A stretch of DNA of 64,000 nt from a virus, in the IMG/VR virus record IMGVR_UViG_3300008954_000020, positions 38,579-102,578 of that record. The stretch is one strand, 5' to 3'. Shown one piece after another: positions 2,815 through 64,000 of the stretch (position 1 is its first letter; every line of letters begins with the position of its first letter). The position numbers were made by a program, and so were the translations under genes. The notes beneath the pieces are model-generated. The model did not search any database, was not told the origin of the DNA, and worked only from the letters and a program-made list of their open reading frames with translations.

Positions 2815-4532
2815 AACATTTTGCTGAAATTATTTTGTTTTTCAAAGGTCATTTGGTTTGGAAATTTATCAGCCAATTGATCTGATTTGTGGCTGATTAC
2901 GAATATATTACATCTTTGACTTAAAGAATGTATCAATTTTAAAAATTCTTCTGTACCAAAAGCATCGAGCGACGAATCAAATACTTCATCAAGAATTAAA
3001 AGATTTGTATTTGCACTATTCTTTAATCTAGCAATTTCTCGCCATGACAAAAGAAGTGATAAATCAATTCTCATTTTTTCTCCTTCGCTAAATGACATGT
3101 AACTAAAATCGTCACGGTGTCTGCTCTTGATGGTTTCATTGAATTCTTCGTCTAATGTAAATTGAGCAAAGAAGTCCATTGAAGCCAAATATTTGTTGAT
3201 GAGTTTATTCATCATAGGAAGATAGTGTTTAATGATTTTTGATTTGATACCGCCATCCTTTAACAACGAAGTGGCAATATCATAATAATACAAATCTTCA
3301 ATTCGTTCTTTCTTTTCTTCCTGTTGTATATTCATATTTTGTTTGTAGGTTGTGAGTTTTTCAGTTTCACTTTTGATTTGGTCTTGGTCTTTTTTAATCA
3401 GTTCAGTTTGTTCTACTAATTTTTCCATATACCCAACGGCTGCACTAACCCACCCATTCTTAGAAGAAATGTCATCTTCCAATGCAGTAATTTCAGAAAG
3501 TTTGTTGTCTACTGTAATGGAATGTTCTTGTATTTCTTCGTAATGAACAGCAAGTTCTTCCATTGCATTTTCAATTTCAACCAACTTATCTTTCTTCCGT
3601 TCAACAGTTTTAATTACATTGGTATTTGATTCATCAATATCTTGTGTACAGGTGGGACAAACTTCATTCATTTCAAAGAATAAAATGCCCTCTTCGGCTT
3701 TTCTTTTATTTGATCCTAGTTGTTTCTTTAGAACTTCAACCCTTCGAATCTTTGATTGTAAATCACCATACGATTTTATTTCTTTTCGTTTGTGGTCTGA
3801 TGTTAATCTCAAGTCTTCGATTTTGGTTTGATGGTTTTTAATTTTCTTCTTGGTTTCTAATATTTCTTTTTCGTTTTCTGCGGAACTTTGTTCTGATTTC
3901 TTAGATACATTTTCGATATGAGATTCTAGTATTTCGATTTTTTCTTTTAGAACTTCGATGTTAAATATAATCTCTCTGTGTTCTTCTCGACAAGTTGATA
4001 TGTGGGTTTTAAGAATCGTATTCATATCAGAAAAGATATTGATATCCAGAATATCTTCAATAACTCCACGCCGGTCTGATGTACTTAATTGCATAAAAGG
4101 AACAAAGGACGAACTACCTAAAATCACAACTTGTGTAAAAGACTTATAATTCATTTTTAGAATTTGGTCTTCCAACATTCGCTGATAATCTTTTGTCTTG
4201 GCATTTTGGTCGAATAATTCCCCGTTTCGATAAATTTCAAATTTCTTGGGTTTTATACCTCTGATAATTTTATATGAATCATCACCAATTTCAAACTCTA
4301 CTTCCACCCACAAGTTTTTCTTGTTTATACTGTTAACCAATTGCGGAATATTAATTTTTCGAAATGGTTTTCCAAATAACCCAAAGGTGATAGAATCTAA
4401 TAATGCAAAAGATTTTCCATGACCGTTATTCCCTGATACAAGAGTCATAGAATGTCGGTCTAATTGTATTTCTGTAACAGCGTTTCCGAATGAACCAAAG
4501 TTTCGGAAACGAACTTTCTTAAAATTTATCAC
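2811..4532 (-). CDS. gp46: Recombination endonuclease ATPase subunit (Rad50/SbcC-like)
   Basis: Walker A GNNGHGKS, CPTC zinc hook in coiled coil, FSEGEKMRIDL signature, LILDEVFD Walker B. Confidence 0.97.
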   Translation of the reverse strand: MINFKKVRFRNFGSFGNAVTEIQLDRHSMTLVSGNNGHGKSFALLDSITFGLFGKPFRKINIPQLVNSINKKNLWVEVEFEIGDDSYKIIRGIKPKKFEIYRNGELFDQNAKTKDYQRMLEDQILKMNYKSFTQVVILGSSSFVPFMQLSTSDRRGVIEDILDINIFSDMNTILKTHISTCREEHREIIFNIEVLKEKIEILESHIENVSKKSEQSSAENEKEILETKKKIKNHQTKIEDLRLTSDHKRKEIKSYGDLQSKIRRVEVLKKQLGSNKRKAEEGILFFEMNEVCPTCTQDIDESNTNVIKTVERKKDKLVEIENAMEELAVHYEEIQEHSITVDNKLSEITALEDDISSKNGWVSAAVGYMEKLVEQTELIKKDQDQIKSETEKLTTYKQNMNIQQEEKKERIEDLYYYDIATSLLKDGGIKSKIIKHYLPMMNKLINKYLASMDFFAQFTLDEEFNETIKSRHRDDFSYMSFSEGEKMRIDLSLLLSWREIARLKNSANTNLLILDEVFDSSLDAFGTEEFLKLIHSLSQRCNIFVISHKSDQLADKFPNQMTFEKQNNFSKML

Positions 4533-5593
4533 TGTGAAAGACTCTCCGTGTACAGGTCTTTAATTATCTTCTTCAACTTTCCTGTGTTTTCAATTTCTTC
4601 CATTGTATCAATCTCATTCAGAATAAGTGTCAGTGTATCCTTGGACATGTCAATAACATCCTCATCATCAATTTCTTGTTGAATTATGTCTTCAATAATT
4701 GTGAGATTGCCTACTTGTGCATTATACAGTTTATCTAAGAACCTGTCAAACAAATAAGGACTTCTTTTATATCTTACAAAAACTTTAACTTGCCCATTTT
4801 TATATTTTTTGAAATCGCCGGACTTAATCCAATCTTCGATTTTTTCTGATTCACTATCATCATAATCGATAGCATGAAACATCCGTAATGGGTTTTCAAT
4901 AAATTCAAGAGTTCTAGTTTCTGTATCAAAAACATGAAATCCCTTTCGGACATTTAAATCCGTAAAAGTAATTTGATACTGGGCTCCCAAATAATAAATG
5001 TTATCTTTATTGCTCTTTTGATGAAAGTGTCCAGACCAAACTTGTTCAAATCGTTTTAACGGTTTATCATCCATCCCACCATCATGTCTAATGCCGGGCA
5101 CAATTTCATAACCATTTAATTCAAAATGACCCACAGCAATAGGACATGCCGTAGAGTCCAATAACTTTAAACACTTGTCTTTGTTTGATTTATTTATCCA
5201 CGGAACCATAACAAAACCTTCTTTATCTAACCACAGTTCTTGTGGTGTTTCGATGATATTAAAGTTTTTGTAACGGTTACCTAACAATTCACGAACAGAA
5301 TTTAGTTCGTTAGTATTTTTGTAATAGGTATCGTGATTACCAAGAATAATATGAGTTTCTATACCGATATCTTCTAACGGTTCTAGAAATCTTTTTCTGG
5401 TATTATTAAGTGTATTGAAATTTACAAATTTCCTTCTGTCCATCAAATCGCCCAAGTGAAAAATAGCGTCTATTTTATTCTCTTGGATGTAGGGAAAGAA
5501 GGTTTCTTCAAAAAACTGAAAGAAGTAATCTGCAAATATTTGGGAGTCCGCTCGAGCCCCAAAGTGCGTGTCATTAATCAGTGCTATCTTCAT
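4529..5593 (-). CDS. gp47: Recombination endonuclease nuclease subunit (Mre11/SbcD-like)
   Basis: DTHFG, GDLMDRR, GNHD, GHFE, SGHFH phosphoesterase motifs. Confidence 0.97.
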   Translation of the reverse strand: MKIALINDTHFGARADSQIFADYFFQFFEETFFPYIQENKIDAIFHLGDLMDRRKFVNFNTLNNTRKRFLEPLEDIGIETHIILGNHDTYYKNTNELNSVRELLGNRYKNFNIIETPQELWLDKEGFVMVPWINKSNKDKCLKLLDSTACPIAVGHFELNGYEIVPGIRHDGGMDDKPLKRFEQVWSGHFHQKSNKDNIYYLGAQYQITFTDLNVRKGFHVFDTETRTLEFIENPLRMFHAIDYDDSESEKIEDWIKSGDFKKYKNGQVKVFVRYKRSPYLFDRFLDKLYNAQVGNLTIIEDIIQQEIDDEDVIDMSKDTLTLILNEIDTMEEIENTGKLKKIIKDLYTESLSQ

Positions 5594-57671: not shown

Positions 57672-59645
57672 ATGGCAGAAGAATCCAAAACCCTAATACA
57701 ACTCAGAGATGAGATGGTTAAGTCGAGAACCGACCAATCAAAAATTGGTGGGATGACTATCGCTGAACTTAAAGGTATGGGCGGCGGATTGAATAAATTG
57801 GTTGATTCTCTTAAAGATGGATTAAAGGCTGATAAGAAAGAATCCGCAGAGGATAAACGAAAAAATAAAGCAGAAAAAGAAGAACGAAGAGAAGGACGAA
57901 GTGAATTAAGAAATGCGCTTGCGGATTTGGGTGATGCATTCAAAAACGGATTTAAAAATATAGGAGATATTGCAAAACCGGCCGGCATTGGAAAGATGTT
58001 GGTTGGAATTGCTGGATTGCTTGCGGGAGCATTTATCGGATTCTTTGGTGAAATTAAAAACCGGCTGTTCTTGATATTGAAAATATTTGCATATCCATTT
58101 AAAGTATTGTTTCCTAAAAAGATAAAAGCCATATCTGAATTGTTTATGAAGGTTTTTGGAAAGAGTGGTTGGTTTGGTAAATTCTTCACAAAGATAGGAA
58201 CTATCTTTGCATGGATAGGAAACAAAATAAAACCTATTTGGAAGGTAATTAAGAGCGTCTTTGGATTTTTTGGAAGGATAGCAGGATTTCTATCACCAAC
58301 CCTAAAAGCACTCGGTGGTGGAGGTGGTGGACTTTTCAAAATGTTTAAACCATTAATGTCTACCTTTAAAGCTATGTTTAAAGTCGGAAAGGTTCTTGGT
58401 AAGGTTGTAGGAAAAATATTCCTCCCCATTCAAATAATTTGGGGAGTTGTAAAGGGATTACTGGGTGCCCTCGATAAATTCAAAAGCGGTGATATTCTTG
58501 GGGGTATAGGTGCCTTCTTTGGTGGTATACTGGATGTATTTACCTTTGGAATTATTGATATGGAGAAATTCGCCGATTGGTTCTCTAGTTTGTTCGGCAA
58601 TTTCATTGGATTCTTCGAAAAACTTTTCACTGGTGATATTCTCGGAGCAATAACCGACTTGGGTAATTTCCTTCTTGATTGGATGGTTGGATTGCCTGAA
58701 ATGGTATTCGATGGAATCTTAAATGCAATCGCTGGTGTCTTTAACTTCTTTGGATTAGATTCAATCGGAAAATGGTTCAGCGATTTTGCAGATGTAGATA
58801 TCCTTGGAACAATCAAAGGCTTCTTTGCTTCTATGATGGAATACATCGGCCCCGTAATAGATGGTATTTGGGATGTTGTGAAATCTGTCTTCGGTGCAAT
58901 ATACGATGGTTTCATGTGGATATGGGATAATGTTTATGTACCTTACATTATGTTTCTTAAAGATTTAATGATGAATATTTTTAGTGGAATCGGAACTGCA
59001 TTCACTTGGATTTATGACAATGTATTCGTTCCATACATTTCTACACTTGGTGACATTATGATGGCCGTATTTGGTGGAATTGGAGATGCATTGAAGTGGG
59101 TATACAATAATACAGTCAATCCTGTAATATCAGGAATCATGTATTTCTTCAACATGGTTGGGTGGGCCTTCGGTAAAGTAACAAATGCGGGAATGCATGT
59201 CCTGAATGGTCTTATTTCCCTTATTAATACAATTCCAGATTGGATAAAACCCGCATCATTGGAAGGATTAGAGAGTTTCCCAGTCGAAGATGCTGGCGAA
59301 TTCCCATCATTTGAAATGTTGCCGGGATTGAAGTCGGGTGGTATGGTAGAGGGTTTACAAGATGGACTTGGTAAACTTTTCCGTATGGGTGAGGGTGGTG
59401 ATGAAATGGTAACACCACTAGATAAATTGAAACCAAATATCATAGACCCCATCATGGCAAAAACTATGGCAATGATGCCAGCAATGGCAAACATGGGCGG
59501 TGGTGGTGTCGGTGGTGCTACAAGCCAAGTTACGGTTGTCAATGCACCTAACAACAGTCAAGCGGTTTCCCAGAGTTCCACATTTGCGAGTTCAATGACT
59601 TCAACAAATAGTGAAATCTCTCGTAAGTTGGATTTAAACCACTAA
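57672..59645 (+). CDS. gp29: Tape measure / baseplate hub protein
   Basis: 657 aa of amphipathic Phe/Trp/Gly-rich helical repeats, C-terminal GG/GEGG.E motif and VVNAP; follows gp26/gp51. Confidence 0.75.
   Translation: MAEESKTLIQLRDEMVKSRTDQSKIGGMTIAELKGMGGGLNKLVDSLKDGLKADKKESAEDKRKNKAEKEERREGRSELRNALADLGDAFKNGFKNIGDIAKPAGIGKMLVGIAGLLAGAFIGFFGEIKNRLFLILKIFAYPFKVLFPKKIKAISELFMKVFGKSGWFGKFFTKIGTIFAWIGNKIKPIWKVIKSVFGFFGRIAGFLSPTLKALGGGGGGLFKMFKPLMSTFKAMFKVGKVLGKVVGKIFLPIQIIWGVVKGLLGALDKFKSGDILGGIGAFFGGILDVFTFGIIDMEKFADWFSSLFGNFIGFFEKLFTGDILGAITDLGNFLLDWMVGLPEMVFDGILNAIAGVFNFFGLDSIGKWFSDFADVDILGTIKGFFASMMEYIGPVIDGIWDVVKSVFGAIYDGFMWIWDNVYVPYIMFLKDLMMNIFSGIGTAFTWIYDNVFVPYISTLGDIMMAVFGGIGDALKWVYNNTVNPVISGIMYFFNMVGWAFGKVTNAGMHVLNGLISLINTIPDWIKPASLEGLESFPVEDAGEFPSFEMLPGLKSGGMVEGLQDGLGKLFRMGEGGDEMVTPLDKLKPNIIDPIMAKTMAMMPAMANMGGGGVGGATSQVTVVNAPNNSQAVSQSSTFASSMTSTNSEISRKLDLNH
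58887..59156 (+). repeat. Three tandem 90-bp (30-aa) repeats in the tape measure gene
   Basis: VFGAIYDGFMWIWDNVYVPYI.../IFSGIGTAFTWIYDNVFVPYI.../VFGGIGDALKWVYNNTVNPVI... Confidence 0.8.
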
Positions 59646-59646
59646 T

Positions 59647-59681
59647 AAAAAACCCCCCGCCGAAGCAGGGGGTTCTTTTTT
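59647..59681. terminator. Bidirectional rho-independent terminator between gp29 and the porin gene
   Basis: A6-CCCCCCGC-CGAA-GCAGGGGG-TTC-T6 between convergent genes. Confidence 0.9.
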
Positions 59682-59698: not shown

Positions 59699-60841
59699 TC
59701 AGAATTGAATCTGAAGTTGGGTACGAACGAGGTACTCGCCTTCGGCGGCACTTGCATTCCATCCCGTGCTGGCAACATCCCAACCCGCATCAATATCATT
59801 CATGGCATAACCGACATCGGTTGTCCACTTAACATTGGGGTTGACCATGTAGTTGACACCTACAGTTGCGACACTAAGGTCTGCTGTAGCGCCTTCCAAC
59901 CTGCCAAATTCATATGCAACGAAACCCTGAAGGTTATCCATGCACTGATAAGAAACAGTAAGGGTAGTTGCCCAGTCATCTCCCGCATCACGGTTTACAC
60001 CGACATATGCAGCAGTGAGGTCAAGAGCACCCCAATTGACGCCAGTATCTACAGTATAAGTTGTGTAGTTACTGTCTACAAGGTCATTCCACGAAACCGC
60101 AGCACCAAGATTCCACCAAGAGGTGACATCATAATCTGCTCGTGCAGTAAGGGCATATCCATTCTGGATGCCGGCACCGTTTGCGGTGTCGAATCCATCA
60201 GTGTATGCACCACGAAGCGTAAGTGCTCCGAAGTCCTTACCGAATTGGATACCTTGTGACCGGCCTTGGCCGAAGGTATACGAAACAATTGACCTATCAG
60301 CGGCAAGTGTATCAGTTCGTGATACAAGAACTTCCTTCATGAAGGGAGCCTTGAACTGACCAAACTGGAAGTCAAGACCACCAATTTCACCAGTACCATA
60401 AGCGTCCTTCAATTCGAAGTCACCACCATCGCTCCATTGACCACTTACTCTATAACCGAAGTCATAGACATCACCACTAAGGATGAGTCGTGAGCGAGGA
60501 ACACTGAAACCATGATTGGCATCGGTATCTCCACCACCACTGTAGTCGAAACGAGTCTGTACAAATCCGTGTACATTAACCGTTACAGGGCTTCCGTTGC
60601 CCTGAAAACTAGCACGATTGTCTGCATCAGCAAGAACATCGTGAACAAGTTGACGAGTCGCTTCGGCTCGTTCGTTGTTCAACCAGTTATCACTATCCGA
60701 TGCAGATAGTTCTGCAATCCGTGCTTCGGCTGCTTCAAGTCGTTCTTGAAGTTCCGCATTGGTGTCAGCACCAGCAACACCAGTGCAGATTCCTGCAAAT
60801 AGTGCTACGAGAGCCACCTTTGTAAGTTTTGAGATATTCAT
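59699..60841 (-). CDS. Outer-membrane porin (OprO/OprP-like), host-derived
   Basis: Signal peptide, N-terminal coiled coil, GFVQTRF, RSRLILSG, GQFKAPF, RSQGIQ, alternating beta-strands, C-terminal YLVRTQLQIQF beta-signal; AGGAG RBS. Confidence 0.85.
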   Translation of the reverse strand: MNISKLTKVALVALFAGICTGVAGADTNAELQERLEAAEARIAELSASDSDNWLNNERAEATRQLVHDVLADADNRASFQGNGSPVTVNVHGFVQTRFDYSGGGDTDANHGFSVPRSRLILSGDVYDFGYRVSGQWSDGGDFELKDAYGTGEIGGLDFQFGQFKAPFMKEVLVSRTDTLAADRSIVSYTFGQGRSQGIQFGKDFGALTLRGAYTDGFDTANGAGIQNGYALTARADYDVTSWWNLGAAVSWNDLVDSNYTTYTVDTGVNWGALDLTAAYVGVNRDAGDDWATTLTVSYQCMDNLQGFVAYEFGRLEGATADLSVATVGVNYMVNPNVKWTTDVGYAMNDIDAGWDVASTGWNASAAEGEYLVRTQLQIQF

Positions 60842-60869: not shown

Positions 60870-61043
60870 TCAAACGCTAGCGACAAGGTTCCAAAGTTCA
60901 CGAACTGCTCCACCGAGCCAAGTAACACCGTTCCACGCAAATGGAAGAAGTGCCAATGTGATTAGCATACTACGGCACACACCGACCTTACCTAACGCAT
61001 TTGTCACGACATCTGTGCCGCAACTATCTGTACATTTAGCCAT
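60870..61043 (-). CDS. 57-aa putative membrane peptide; missing from ORF track
   Basis: MAKCTDSCGTDVVTNALGKVGVCRSMLITLALLPFAWNGVTWLGGAVRELWNLVASV; strong AAGGAG RBS. Confidence 0.75.
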   Translation of the reverse strand: MAKCTDSCGTDVVTNALGKVGVCRSMLITLALLPFAWNGVTWLGGAVRELWNLVASV

Positions 61044-61069
61044 TGTATTTCTCCTTTTTTAGAAATAAT

Positions 61070-61150
61070 CCTCTGGCAAAAGAGGTTGGTGCGTTTTTGC
61101 ACCGTGAAGTCAACTCCGACTTCGTTAGTTTATGTCACTTATTTAGTGAC
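61070..61150 (-). promoter_or_regulatory. Structured 5' leader of the porin operon (four hairpins)
   Basis: Stems at 61134-61150, 61106-61123, 61088-61103 and 61070-61085; the first has a TAAATA late-promoter-like core over its loop. Confidence 0.6.
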
Positions 61151-61157
61151 TTTTAAA

Positions 61158-61201
61158 AATTGACACCCCACATTATACACCTAATATGCGGGGTGTCAAT
61201 T
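61158..61201 (-). terminator. Long inverted repeat: gp32 terminator that also contains a sigma70 promoter
   Basis: AATTGACACCCC/GGGGTGTCAATT arms plus U tail; contains TTGACA-N16-TATAAT (61172-61199). Confidence 0.75.
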
Positions 61202-61217
61202 AAAATTTTAATTATTT

Positions 61218-62117
61218 TCAATCTTCGGAAGCAAGCTTTTCGAAGTACGAAAGGGCGTCTTCACCCTCAGTAGTAGTAGTTTCGGTAGTAGTATCATCAC
61301 TCTTACCGAATGCTTCTTCTGCCATGGCTGCACCATCAGACACATCAGCATCTTCAGCAGTAGGAGCAATAGTAGTATCTACATCCTTACCAAGAACGGT
61401 TTGAAGTCTATCCTTCAATTCGTCATAAGTTTTGAACTGGTCATCAGCAATAAACTCATTAAGGTCAGTCTGTGTCTTCCACAATTCTTCCAACTTATCA
61501 TCATCACCATCAAGTAGTGCAGTAGACGAATCAAACTCACTCTTGTCGTAGTTGATAAATCCAGCAACCTTGCGAACCTTAAGACGGAAGTTTGCACCCT
61601 TCCAGAAATCGAATGGATTTACTGGGGACTCATCTTCAAACTCAGGATTCATAGATTCCATAATCTTATCAAAAATCTTCTTACCAAACTTATAGAGAAA
61701 AACCTTGCCCTCATTCTCAGGGTTCTTGGGGTCACTCAAAACCATAATATTTGCAATGTAAGTAAGACGGCGCTTTTGCTTACGGGCAACATCTTTGCCC
61801 TTTTCAGTACCAGAATTCCACAACCTACTGTTAAGTTCTGAAACTGGGTCTTTTTCGCCACGGGTAGTGAGAGAATTCTCAATATACCAGCCGCCTGGCC
61901 CTTGGAAACCGTGATTCCAAACACGAACCCACGGAAGTTCGGCACCTTCTGATGCAGGCAAGAAACGAATAATAGCAAATCCGTTTGATGCATTGTCAAG
62001 TTCTGGACGCCAGAATCGGTCATCCTTGTAAGACTTCTTTGTATCGTTCATTTCTTCTAACTTCGTCTTAAGAAAGTCAGTGTTACTTGAACGCTTTTTC
62101 ATATCGTTGAAACTCAT
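61218..62117 (-). CDS. gp32: Single-stranded DNA-binding protein
   Basis: DDRFW, AIIRFLP, HGFQGPGGWYIENSLTT, GKVFLYKFGKKIFDKI, FDFWKGANF, NYDKSEF, acidic tail; start ATG 62117 after AAGGAG. Confidence 0.97.
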   Translation of the reverse strand: MSFNDMKKRSSNTDFLKTKLEEMNDTKKSYKDDRFWRPELDNASNGFAIIRFLPASEGAELPWVRVWNHGFQGPGGWYIENSLTTRGEKDPVSELNSRLWNSGTEKGKDVARKQKRRLTYIANIMVLSDPKNPENEGKVFLYKFGKKIFDKIMESMNPEFEDESPVNPFDFWKGANFRLKVRKVAGFINYDKSEFDSSTALLDGDDDKLEELWKTQTDLNEFIADDQFKTYDELKDRLQTVLGKDVDTTIAPTAEDADVSDGAAMAEEAFGKSDDTTTETTTTEGEDALSYFEKLASED

Positions 62118-62167
62118 GCAGTATCTCCTTATATTTCTGAATATAGTTTTCGTATTACGATGTGTAT

Positions 62168-62195
62168 ATTTTAACATATATTTCATATATGTCAA
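62168..62195 (-). promoter_or_regulatory. Sigma70-type promoter for gp32
   Basis: TTGACA-N16-TAAAAT, followed by an A/U-rich unstructured leader. Confidence 0.75.
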
Positions 62196-63393: not shown

Positions 63394-64000
63394 CTACCAG
63401 TTCTTATTAATAAAGTCAAGCAATTTCTTTTCGTCATCAGAAATTGACATTCTCGCTCCTGTTCCTAAGTTATCTGCATGGGGAGTTTCATAAACAGATT
63501 CTTTGATACCAAAACTCTTCTCAAACTTCTTACGACTCTTCTCGTCCTTGAACTTGATATTCACGGTATACTTCTTGTAGTCACCACTAAGACCAAATTT
63601 AGCAATCATTCCCTTAGTCAACGCCGATGTACCTGCATCCATCAGTTTTTCATATTCTTTTTTATCTTTTGCTTGATAAAGTCGTTCGACATCCGAGGGA
63701 TGAGTATCTTTCTTATATGAACCTTGTCCTGTTCGAACTAGTGGAATTGATTCTGCTTCATCTACTTCATTGGATTCATCATATGGGCCATATCCCTTGG
63801 GTGTAACCTCAGAAGTTGAATGAGAAAATTCACCTTTGTTCTTGTGTGCATATTTCCCAATTGCTTTTTTGTGCATGTCCTTGGTCATACCAGTAATAAC
63901 GACTCTATACTTACCCTTGTATCTTTCGACACCTTTGTTTGCTAGTCCCACGGCAGAATTCTCAACATCCTTTGCAAATTGTTTTGCATCTCGTTCACTT
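63394..64000 (-). CDS. Hypothetical protein, 5'-truncated (possible internal head protein)
   Basis: Frame stays open from the annotated GTG (63951) to the window edge (SERDAKQFAKDVENSAV...); highly charged. Confidence 0.6.
   Translation of the reverse strand, partial: SERDAKQFAKDVENSAVGLANKGVERYKGKYRVVITGMTKDMHKKAIGKYAHKNKGEFSHSTSEVTPKGYGPYDESNEVDEAESIPLVRTGQGSYKKDTHPSDVERLYQAKDKKEYEKLMDAGTSALTKGMIAKFGLSGDYKKYTVNIKFKDEKSRKKFEKSFGIKESVYETPHADNLGTGARMSISDDEKKLLDFINKNW

Follow-up and report, generated by a model that had tools for sequence, protein, structure and literature searches.

Porins carried by phages are chiefly known from the temperate phages of enterobacteria. The lambdoid phage and prophage porins, Lc of PA-2 and NmpC of DLP12, belong to the OmpC/OmpF family and are lysogenic-conversion genes of temperate phages; they supply the infected or lysogenised cell with a trimeric porin of the host type. 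Annotated phage porins also exist in BFVD, and the OprO/OprP fold is well described. A viral OmpL-like porin is located beside glnK-amtB on contigs of uncultured marine phages; its substrate is unknown and it was used as a clue to the host (PMC8115048). Here we analyse a porin gene in a virus record from IMG/VR, IMGVR_UViG_3300008954_000020 (102.6 kb, estimated 57% complete; referred to as G000). The window, i.e., the whole stretch of DNA that was analysed, comprises the last 64 kb of this record. In the literature no description was found of this porin family, of its cassette, of the partner protein or of the leader.

On balance we lean towards the view that this gene, with the identity assigned to it below, is a real and functional phage porin, that it resides in a movable, early-expressed cassette and that it forms a diffusion channel. 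Established directly were the intactness of the gene, its fold and family, the anatomy of the cassette and its relocation, the action of purifying selection and the taxonomic spread of the relatives. New compared to the known phage porins are a lineage-wide mobile two-gene cassette in lytic T4-like phages, a parent family restricted to Phycisphaerales, and an unnamed partner protein together with a leader.

The porin is the second gene of an autonomous cassette which consists of a sigma70-type promoter, a structured leader, a small membrane protein of 57 amino acids (aa), the porin and a terminator. The elements of the cassette and its two neighbours are:

61160..61199, minus strand: sigma70-type promoter; TTGACA at 61199-61194, a spacer of 16 nucleotides (nt), TATAAT at 61177-61172; 12 of 12 consensus positions match
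61044..61159, minus strand: 5' leader of about 115-125 nt with four hairpins at 61150-61134, about 61122-61105, 61103-61088 (C) and 61085-61070 (D)
60870..61043, minus strand: open reading frame (ORF) of the 57-aa small membrane protein; ribosome-binding site AAGGAG, N-terminal C-x3-C, long hydrophobic/amphipathic helix with LITLALLPFAWNGV
59699..60841, minus strand: intact porin ORF, 380 aa
60767..60841, minus strand: porin residues 1-25, Sec-type signal peptide by sequence and low model confidence; Lys-rich n-region, hydrophobic core, ...VAGA before D
60587..60766, minus strand: porin residues 26-85, periplasmic N-terminal domain; heptad coiled coil (28-47) and a helix with WLNNERAE..LVHDVLADADNRAS
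59699..60586, minus strand: porin residues 86-380 and stop codon, barrel; 16 strands, constriction loop L3 (165-193), L4 (215-228), C-terminal ...QLQIQF β-signal
59647..59680, minus strand: intrinsic terminator; stem CCCCCTGC/GCGGGGGG, loop TTCG, T6; in the convergent gap with the tape-measure gene
57672-59645, plus strand: tape-measure gene, PHROG 'tail length tape measure', gp29 position
61218-62195, minus strand: gp32-type gene for a single-stranded-DNA-binding protein, phrog_224, E 1.7e-115

The cassette promoter is embedded in a palindrome with 10-bp arms, TTGACACCCC...GGGGTGTCAA, followed by a T-run; this palindrome may double as the terminator of gp32. At the equivalent relative site near-consensus promoters are present in most of 15 relatives. 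The arrangement of promoter, palindrome and T-run is reminiscent of the mobile early promoter/stem-loop units of T4-type phages. In the leader, 8 of 18 predicted pairs are preserved through two-sided changes (six cassettes of the 380-aa subfamily), with hairpins C and D as the ones that retain their pairing. A search of the cassette against Rfam yielded no family near threshold. Possibly, the leader is a cis-regulatory RNA or an attenuator. The terminator hairpin has a predicted energy of -26 kcal/mol (RNAfold) and equivalents are situated 3' of the porin in most relatives. A transcription unit of its own had been claimed for the porin in an earlier note on this DNA; with promoter and terminator identified this is borne out, and the unit is larger than claimed because it includes the leader and the 57-aa ORF.

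The ORF for the 57-aa protein is directly upstream of the porin in 16 of 16 cassettes examined, in every subtype, and the protein is more conserved than the porin itself. Its family comprises 133 metagenome clusters and carries no name; a Pfam search of the family gave no match. Beside the porins of Planctomycetota no homologue was found (best E 0.6). An AlphaFold2 (AF2) model predicts helices at 12-20 and 24-56 with a predicted local distance difference test score (pLDDT) of 72. The two genes of the cassette are spaced by 28 nt and the porin has an AAGGAG ribosome-binding site of its own.

The T4 late promoter TATAAATA is absent before the cassette, yet is present before late genes of the same phage. 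In its canonical form it precedes four late (head and tail) genes: 12839+42, 18391+53, 54689+97 (minus strand) and 55853-40 (plus strand), so T4-style late transcription is kept in this lineage. Because the cassette has a sigma70 consensus and lacks the element which the late genes carry, early expression driven by the host polymerase is predicted. Other perfect or near-perfect TTGACA-N16/17-TATAAT promoters were observed on the minus strand at 62168, 9394, 6161, 4721 and 1525; in several cases inverted repeats lie within the spacer or next to it.

The AF2 model of the porin, built on 115 homologues, has a pLDDT of 89. Residues 1-25 are disordered and hydrophobic (pLDDT <50). Helices at 28-47 and 53-79 are followed by 16 β-strands up to the C-terminus ...QLQIQF. 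A single long internal loop, residues 165-193, contains two short helices. Thus, instead of the non-barrel structure which had been named beforehand as speaking against a porin, the model gives a 16-strand barrel with the inward-folded L3 of the OprO/OprP superfamily. L3 and L4 (215-228) are the best-conserved segments of the porin within the phage family. The outward loops consist of just 2-5 residues and are not hypervariable across this family. Conserved L3 and L4 segments and tiny outer loops fit a conserved channel rather than a surface shaped by an arms race.

The genome which carries the cassette encodes a T4-type major capsid protein Gp23. Because this protein is of the T4 type and 54-56% identical to the cyanomyovirus versions, G000 is a T4-like marine phage without a close cultured relative. 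It holds a single porin copy (record coordinates 98280-99419). The plus-strand genes leading up to the porin encode a tail tube, a baseplate hub and then the 657-aa tape-measure protein; on the minus-strand side of the porin an exonuclease gene lies beyond the gp32-type gene. As stated in the earlier note, the porin gene is intact and located between gp29 and gp32, i.e., with the tape-measure gene on one side and the phrog_224 gene on the other. The seeming conservation, in relatives, of a 184-aa antisense ORF inside the porin gene (window 59705-60259, plus strand) only mirrors that of the porin frame, and this ORF is not a gene. The tape-measure position is occupied by an ORF of 657 aa here (57672-59645), of 501 aa in G001 (L106:6507-8012) and of 228 aa in G002 (L107:4131-4817); this implies that either the tails differ in length or G002 has another gene at this place.

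A tblastn search with the porin against 50,697 GenBank phage records gave no match, and a scan of genome contigs for exact query peptides found no relative. A word-seeded protein search gave 261 matches among 8,000 scored candidates; the 120 listed of these are 57-95% identical, about 380 aa long and, where the source is named, from marine metagenomes. The exhaustive HMMER search of 1.84 billion representative proteins resulted in 1,124 matches. Three porin subtypes were traced to IMG/VR contigs, with lengths of about 380 aa, about 389 aa and about 342 aa, the last without the coiled coil. The same cassette is present on 22 related phage contigs. Among the genes that each of these 22 loci has in common with the initial 13 kb of G000 (30-80% identity) are gp41, thyX, nrdJ and one for a trypsin-like protease, and Gp23 is carried by three of five relative records tested. 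Pairwise ratios of nonsynonymous to synonymous substitution rates (dN/dS) of the phage porins are between 0.09 and 0.24, i.e., the gene is under purifying selection. As an intact gene of a host family, maintained by purifying selection in a bona fide phage genome, the porin qualifies as a phage auxiliary gene.

A maximum-likelihood tree unites 36 of the 38 rows shorter than 395 aa, including all 15 from phage contigs, in one clade (SH-aLRT 99), to which no row from Planctomycetota and no long metagenomic row belongs. Being built without an outgroup, the tree is unrooted and does not distinguish between nesting within the Phycisphaerales porins and a sister position to them. In this tree, the phage porins form an old clade of their own.

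The cassette has a different address in G000 compared with its relatives. In all 22 related loci it directly follows nrdJ in a block for replication and nucleotide metabolism. In G000 the protease gene comes immediately after nrdJ (3566-5490), and the cassette is instead located between the tape-measure gene and gp32. In G001 and G002, the convergent neighbour of gp32 is an ORF in the tape-measure position (not confirmed by homology); the two are 55-200 bp apart, too little to accommodate the cassette. A protein search did not detect the tape-measure protein in the relatives, and synteny at this junction was judged from the neighbouring genes; by this measure, both flanks of the G000 cassette are syntenic with the relatives. 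Because the cassette follows nrdJ in 22 relatives, is elsewhere in G000, and has no room at the junction in G001 and G002, we conclude from the sequences that the 1.57-kb cassette has moved and now resides in a different, otherwise syntenic junction. This is to be expected of an autonomous module which extends from promoter to terminator and is hard to obtain by misassembly.

Two further observations concern the surroundings. Homologues of a 185-aa ORF (window 63394-63951, minus strand) adjoin the porin cassette in relatives (L101:10771-11349; L102:9263-10123) with 44-92% identity over parts; the cassette may have brought along some of its surroundings. Further, the nrdJ genes at one and the same syntenic position (G000:C1:3566-5490 compared with L002, L003, L004, L005 and L102) are in some cases about 70-75% identical to that of G000 and in others about 29-30%. 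Since two very different versions share one position, this points to an allelic replacement of the class II reductase in these phages.

To which porin family does the protein belong? The query has no match to PF07396 (Porin_O_P) even at E up to 1 and remains below the gathering threshold. The family is reached via relatives: P0061, P0124, P0140 and locus L010 match at 32-41 bits (cut-off 20.9), and OprP is matched by the A3 family profile at E 1.2e-12. Among solved structures, OprP and OprO come closest, and no other PDB entry is related at the level of sequence. The GQFKAPF segment, which the earlier note called typical of OprO/OprP-like phosphate porins, indeed falls on the beginning of loop L3 when aligned with OprP. 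Thus, the porin belongs to the OprO/OprP superfamily, more precisely to the subtype which serves Phycisphaerales as multi-copy main porin. Two other assignments were considered. The enterobacterial general porins (OmpC/OmpF, as in the phage genes Lc and NmpC) are Pfam Porin_1 members, and the phage porin is not. A spanin-like outer-membrane lysis gene should be located close to the putative lysis region and have the late promoter TATAAATA of other late genes; in G000 the porin is far from this region and lacks this promoter, which disfavours a lysis role.

The closest cellular relatives are Phycisphaerales-type porins of Planctomycetota. When 185,579 species genomes were scanned for [LVI]VxDVLADAD, the best 80 loci were exclusively from Planctomycetota, mostly metagenome-assembled genomes (MAGs) of Phycisphaerales with 26-35% identity; the motif, which the earlier note likened to Phycisphaerales porins, is real. 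Because such a scan is biased by its seed, it was checked in three ways. The HMMER search is free of this bias; among its best 150 matches, 94 have an identity of 40% or more to a Planctomycetota ORF in a limited set of loci, and most of the remaining ones are short phage-type forms. In the ESM Atlas the top-ranking cluster is viral, and the next is a PF07396 cluster from Planctomycetota. Lastly, porin matches occur in 230 of 301 genomes of the order to which a complete Phycisphaerales genome belongs (229 of 300 without the unpublished G499), compared with 19 of 401 genomes drawn evenly across the phylum; at least 13 of these 19 are in the list of the order as well. Each genome contributes 4-12 matched stretches, and a single gene often accounts for several of them. 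In MAGs of Planctomycetota, Phycisphaerales-type porin genes are often found in tandem arrays of two or three paralogues (L009, L080, L043, L058).

The similarity is unevenly distributed. Full-length identity of the phage porin to cellular genes is 26-41%. The N-terminal periplasmic domain has a median identity of 46% and a maximum of 60% to Planctomycetota porins, compared with 28% in the barrel; in a search of whole genomes, some reach 58-64% in this domain. In small genomes of the order (1.9-2.2 Mb) the N-terminal coding part matches even at the nucleotide level (69-83%, E down to 1e-14), and these loci have 47-48% GC. The signal peptide, the coiled coil and the [LVI]VxDVLADAD helix ahead of the barrel are all present, as in the coiled-coil porins of Phycisphaerales. 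The retention of a host-type periplasmic domain suggests that the phage porin has to engage a partner specific to the Phycisphaerales-type envelope.

A Planctomycetota host, as proposed in the earlier note, is a reasonable lead. Against it speaks that identity to any cellular gene does not exceed about 41% and that the phage porins, at 380 aa and with trimmed loops, stand in a separate clade, not inside a cellular clade of 430-500-aa proteins with their loops. We give a Phycisphaerales-type host a slight preference on the basis of these relationships; the alternative is an old capture which is now used in another host. Other clues to the host are sparse. PsbA (PF00124) was not found in G000, which is 57% complete, and there was no positive sign of a cyanophage; tRNA genes were not found in the window. 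A blastn comparison of 38.6 kb of phage DNA with the 301 genomes of the order revealed no spacer-like matches above chance. Beyond the N-terminal part of the porin it gave just two matches of 68-70% in a sugar-island gene, which would discriminate only if other phyla served as controls.

What we infer from these findings concerns the time of expression, the localisation of the porin, its trimer formation and substrate, its benefit to the phage and the identity of the host. Host RNA polymerase would transcribe the cassette early in infection. The porin would be exported by Sec and inserted by the β-barrel assembly machinery (BAM) of the host by way of its C-terminal Phe signal. It would then trimerise, and the N-terminal coiled coil would extend into the periplasm and engage the same envelope partner as the porins of the host. 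The result would be a diffusion channel with minimal surface loops under control of the phage, which keeps up or raises the influx of solutes while the cell becomes a factory for nucleotides and DNA. A conserved channel function supplied early is favoured because of the early promoter, the usual position in nucleotide metabolism and purifying selection. Several points weigh against this reading. The porin query itself has no significant match in Pfam, NCBIfam or PHROG models. The benefit of nutrient influx is proposed in analogy with uptake genes of other marine phages. The 342-aa phage subfamily has lost the coiled coil, so that this domain is dispensable for the phage, and on the side of the substrate most of the alignable OprP site residues are changed.

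These residues bear directly on the proposal, made in the earlier note, of a phosphate-uptake gene. A strict phosphate- or anion-specific channel of the OprP/OprO type would accord with the kinship to the closest solved structures, and it is general knowledge that marine phages often carry genes for phosphate acquisition. Yet in the alignable N-terminal half only the equivalents of R60 and R133 of the OprP phosphate site are kept. R34 is changed to F, R59 to P, D94 to K, K121 to V and K126 to T. Of the arginine ladder, R60 and R133 thus have counterparts while R34 and R59 do not; the ladder residues of the C-terminal half are not alignable by sequence. The mature porin has an isoelectric point (pI) of 4.2, with 35 Asp and 14 Glu compared with 5 Lys and 17 Arg. 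A periplasmic lysine cluster as in OprP is impossible in a protein that is so strongly acidic and has so few lysines, and neither this cluster nor the central D94/K121/K126 site of a functional OprP/OprO was found. PstS (PF12849), which could have linked the porin paralogues of the complete reference Phycisphaerales genome G006 to a pst operon, was not found in that genome. Since the alignable site residues are mostly changed and the cluster is impossible, and with PF07396 missed by the query, the porin is not filed as phosphate-specific; the channel is probably not OprP-like in this respect, and we consider the strict phosphate reading very improbable. That the gene is an artefact, i.e., a misassembled cellular fragment or a decaying passenger, would be suggested by its GC content of 48% compared with 39% in the window and by its unusual place in G000. 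However, GC at third codon positions (GC3) is 0.38 as in the neighbouring phage genes, for which reason the surplus GC is due to the amino acids encoded and not to an import in recent times. The ribosome-binding site and the promoter resemble those of phages, both flanks are syntenic, 22 related contigs carry the cassette, dN/dS is well below 1 and the copy is single. Judged on sequence alone, the objection of a chimeric cassette is largely removed and an artefact has next to no probability.

Superinfection exclusion or receptor replacement is a more serious competitor, though we hold it to be unlikely. An early, loop-trimmed phage porin would displace or dilute host porins that serve as receptors, and the small membrane protein might block entry of DNA like Imm and Sp of T4. 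The promoter is of the early type, as is generally known for the exclusion genes of T4; the phage forms have 340-390 aa compared with 430-500 aa in the cellular ones, the missing residues being mostly from loops; and an inner-membrane and an outer-membrane protein are paired in the cassette. Yet host porins already inserted are not quickly removed, the outer loops are conserved instead of diversifying, and family searches did not link the small protein to known exclusion proteins. Improbable, to a greater degree, is a role as tether or stabiliser of the envelope, in which the coiled coil anchors the outer membrane to a periplasmic layer, extra copies hold the envelope together until lysis and the channel is secondary. 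One phage subfamily dropped precisely the coiled coil and kept barrel and partner ORF, and the pore elements L3 and L4 are most conserved. Going beyond the early diffusion channel which we prefer, one can speculate about a module for early takeover of the envelope in the first large, global T4-like clade that infects planktonic Phycisphaerales. Loop-trimmed porin and small partner would replace the main porin, control influx and blind the surface to competitors, with the leader RNA as a tuning device. At present we regard this wider proposal as doubtful.

What does the cassette mean? A whole lineage of lytic marine T4-like phages keeps a porin under purifying selection, along with an uncharacterised partner and regulatory signals of its own. 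This retention implies a selective benefit from control over outer-membrane permeability or surface identity during infection. To our knowledge, very few phages have been described for Phycisphaerales, and the porin is one of few sequence clues that tie an abundant uncultured phage lineage to this order. It further draws attention to a taxon-restricted porin family of the planctomycete envelope that has a periplasmic coiled coil. Since the cassette is compact and complete in itself, it lends itself to direct tests.

A comparison with the known systems delineates the position of the phage porin. Most closely related are the multi-copy coiled-coil porins of the Phycisphaerales type (loci L008-L087), with which it shares the signal peptide, the heptad coiled coil, the helix WL.E.RA...R.LV.DVLADAD.R.SL, a homologous barrel and the ...Q.QL.F end. 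These cellular porins differ in that they have 430-500 aa and longer loops, are often in tandem and lack the small partner ORF, and the phage forms constitute a separate clade. Compared with OprP and OprO from Pseudomonas aeruginosa (PF07396; PDB 2o4v, 4rjw), the phage porin is acidic, has 5 Lys and no Lys cluster, and most alignable site residues are changed; in addition it has an extra periplasmic coiled-coil domain and much shorter loops, and is encoded by a phage. DcaP from Acinetobacter (PDB 6eus), a cellular dicarboxylate-specific channel, has no specific sequence relation to it. The viral OmpL belongs to another porin family, its context is a nitrogen-uptake operon and its inferred host is from the Flavobacteriales (PMC8115048). 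Unlike Lc and NmpC, the porin presented here is of another porin family, resides in a lytic T4-like phage and is accompanied by a partner gene.
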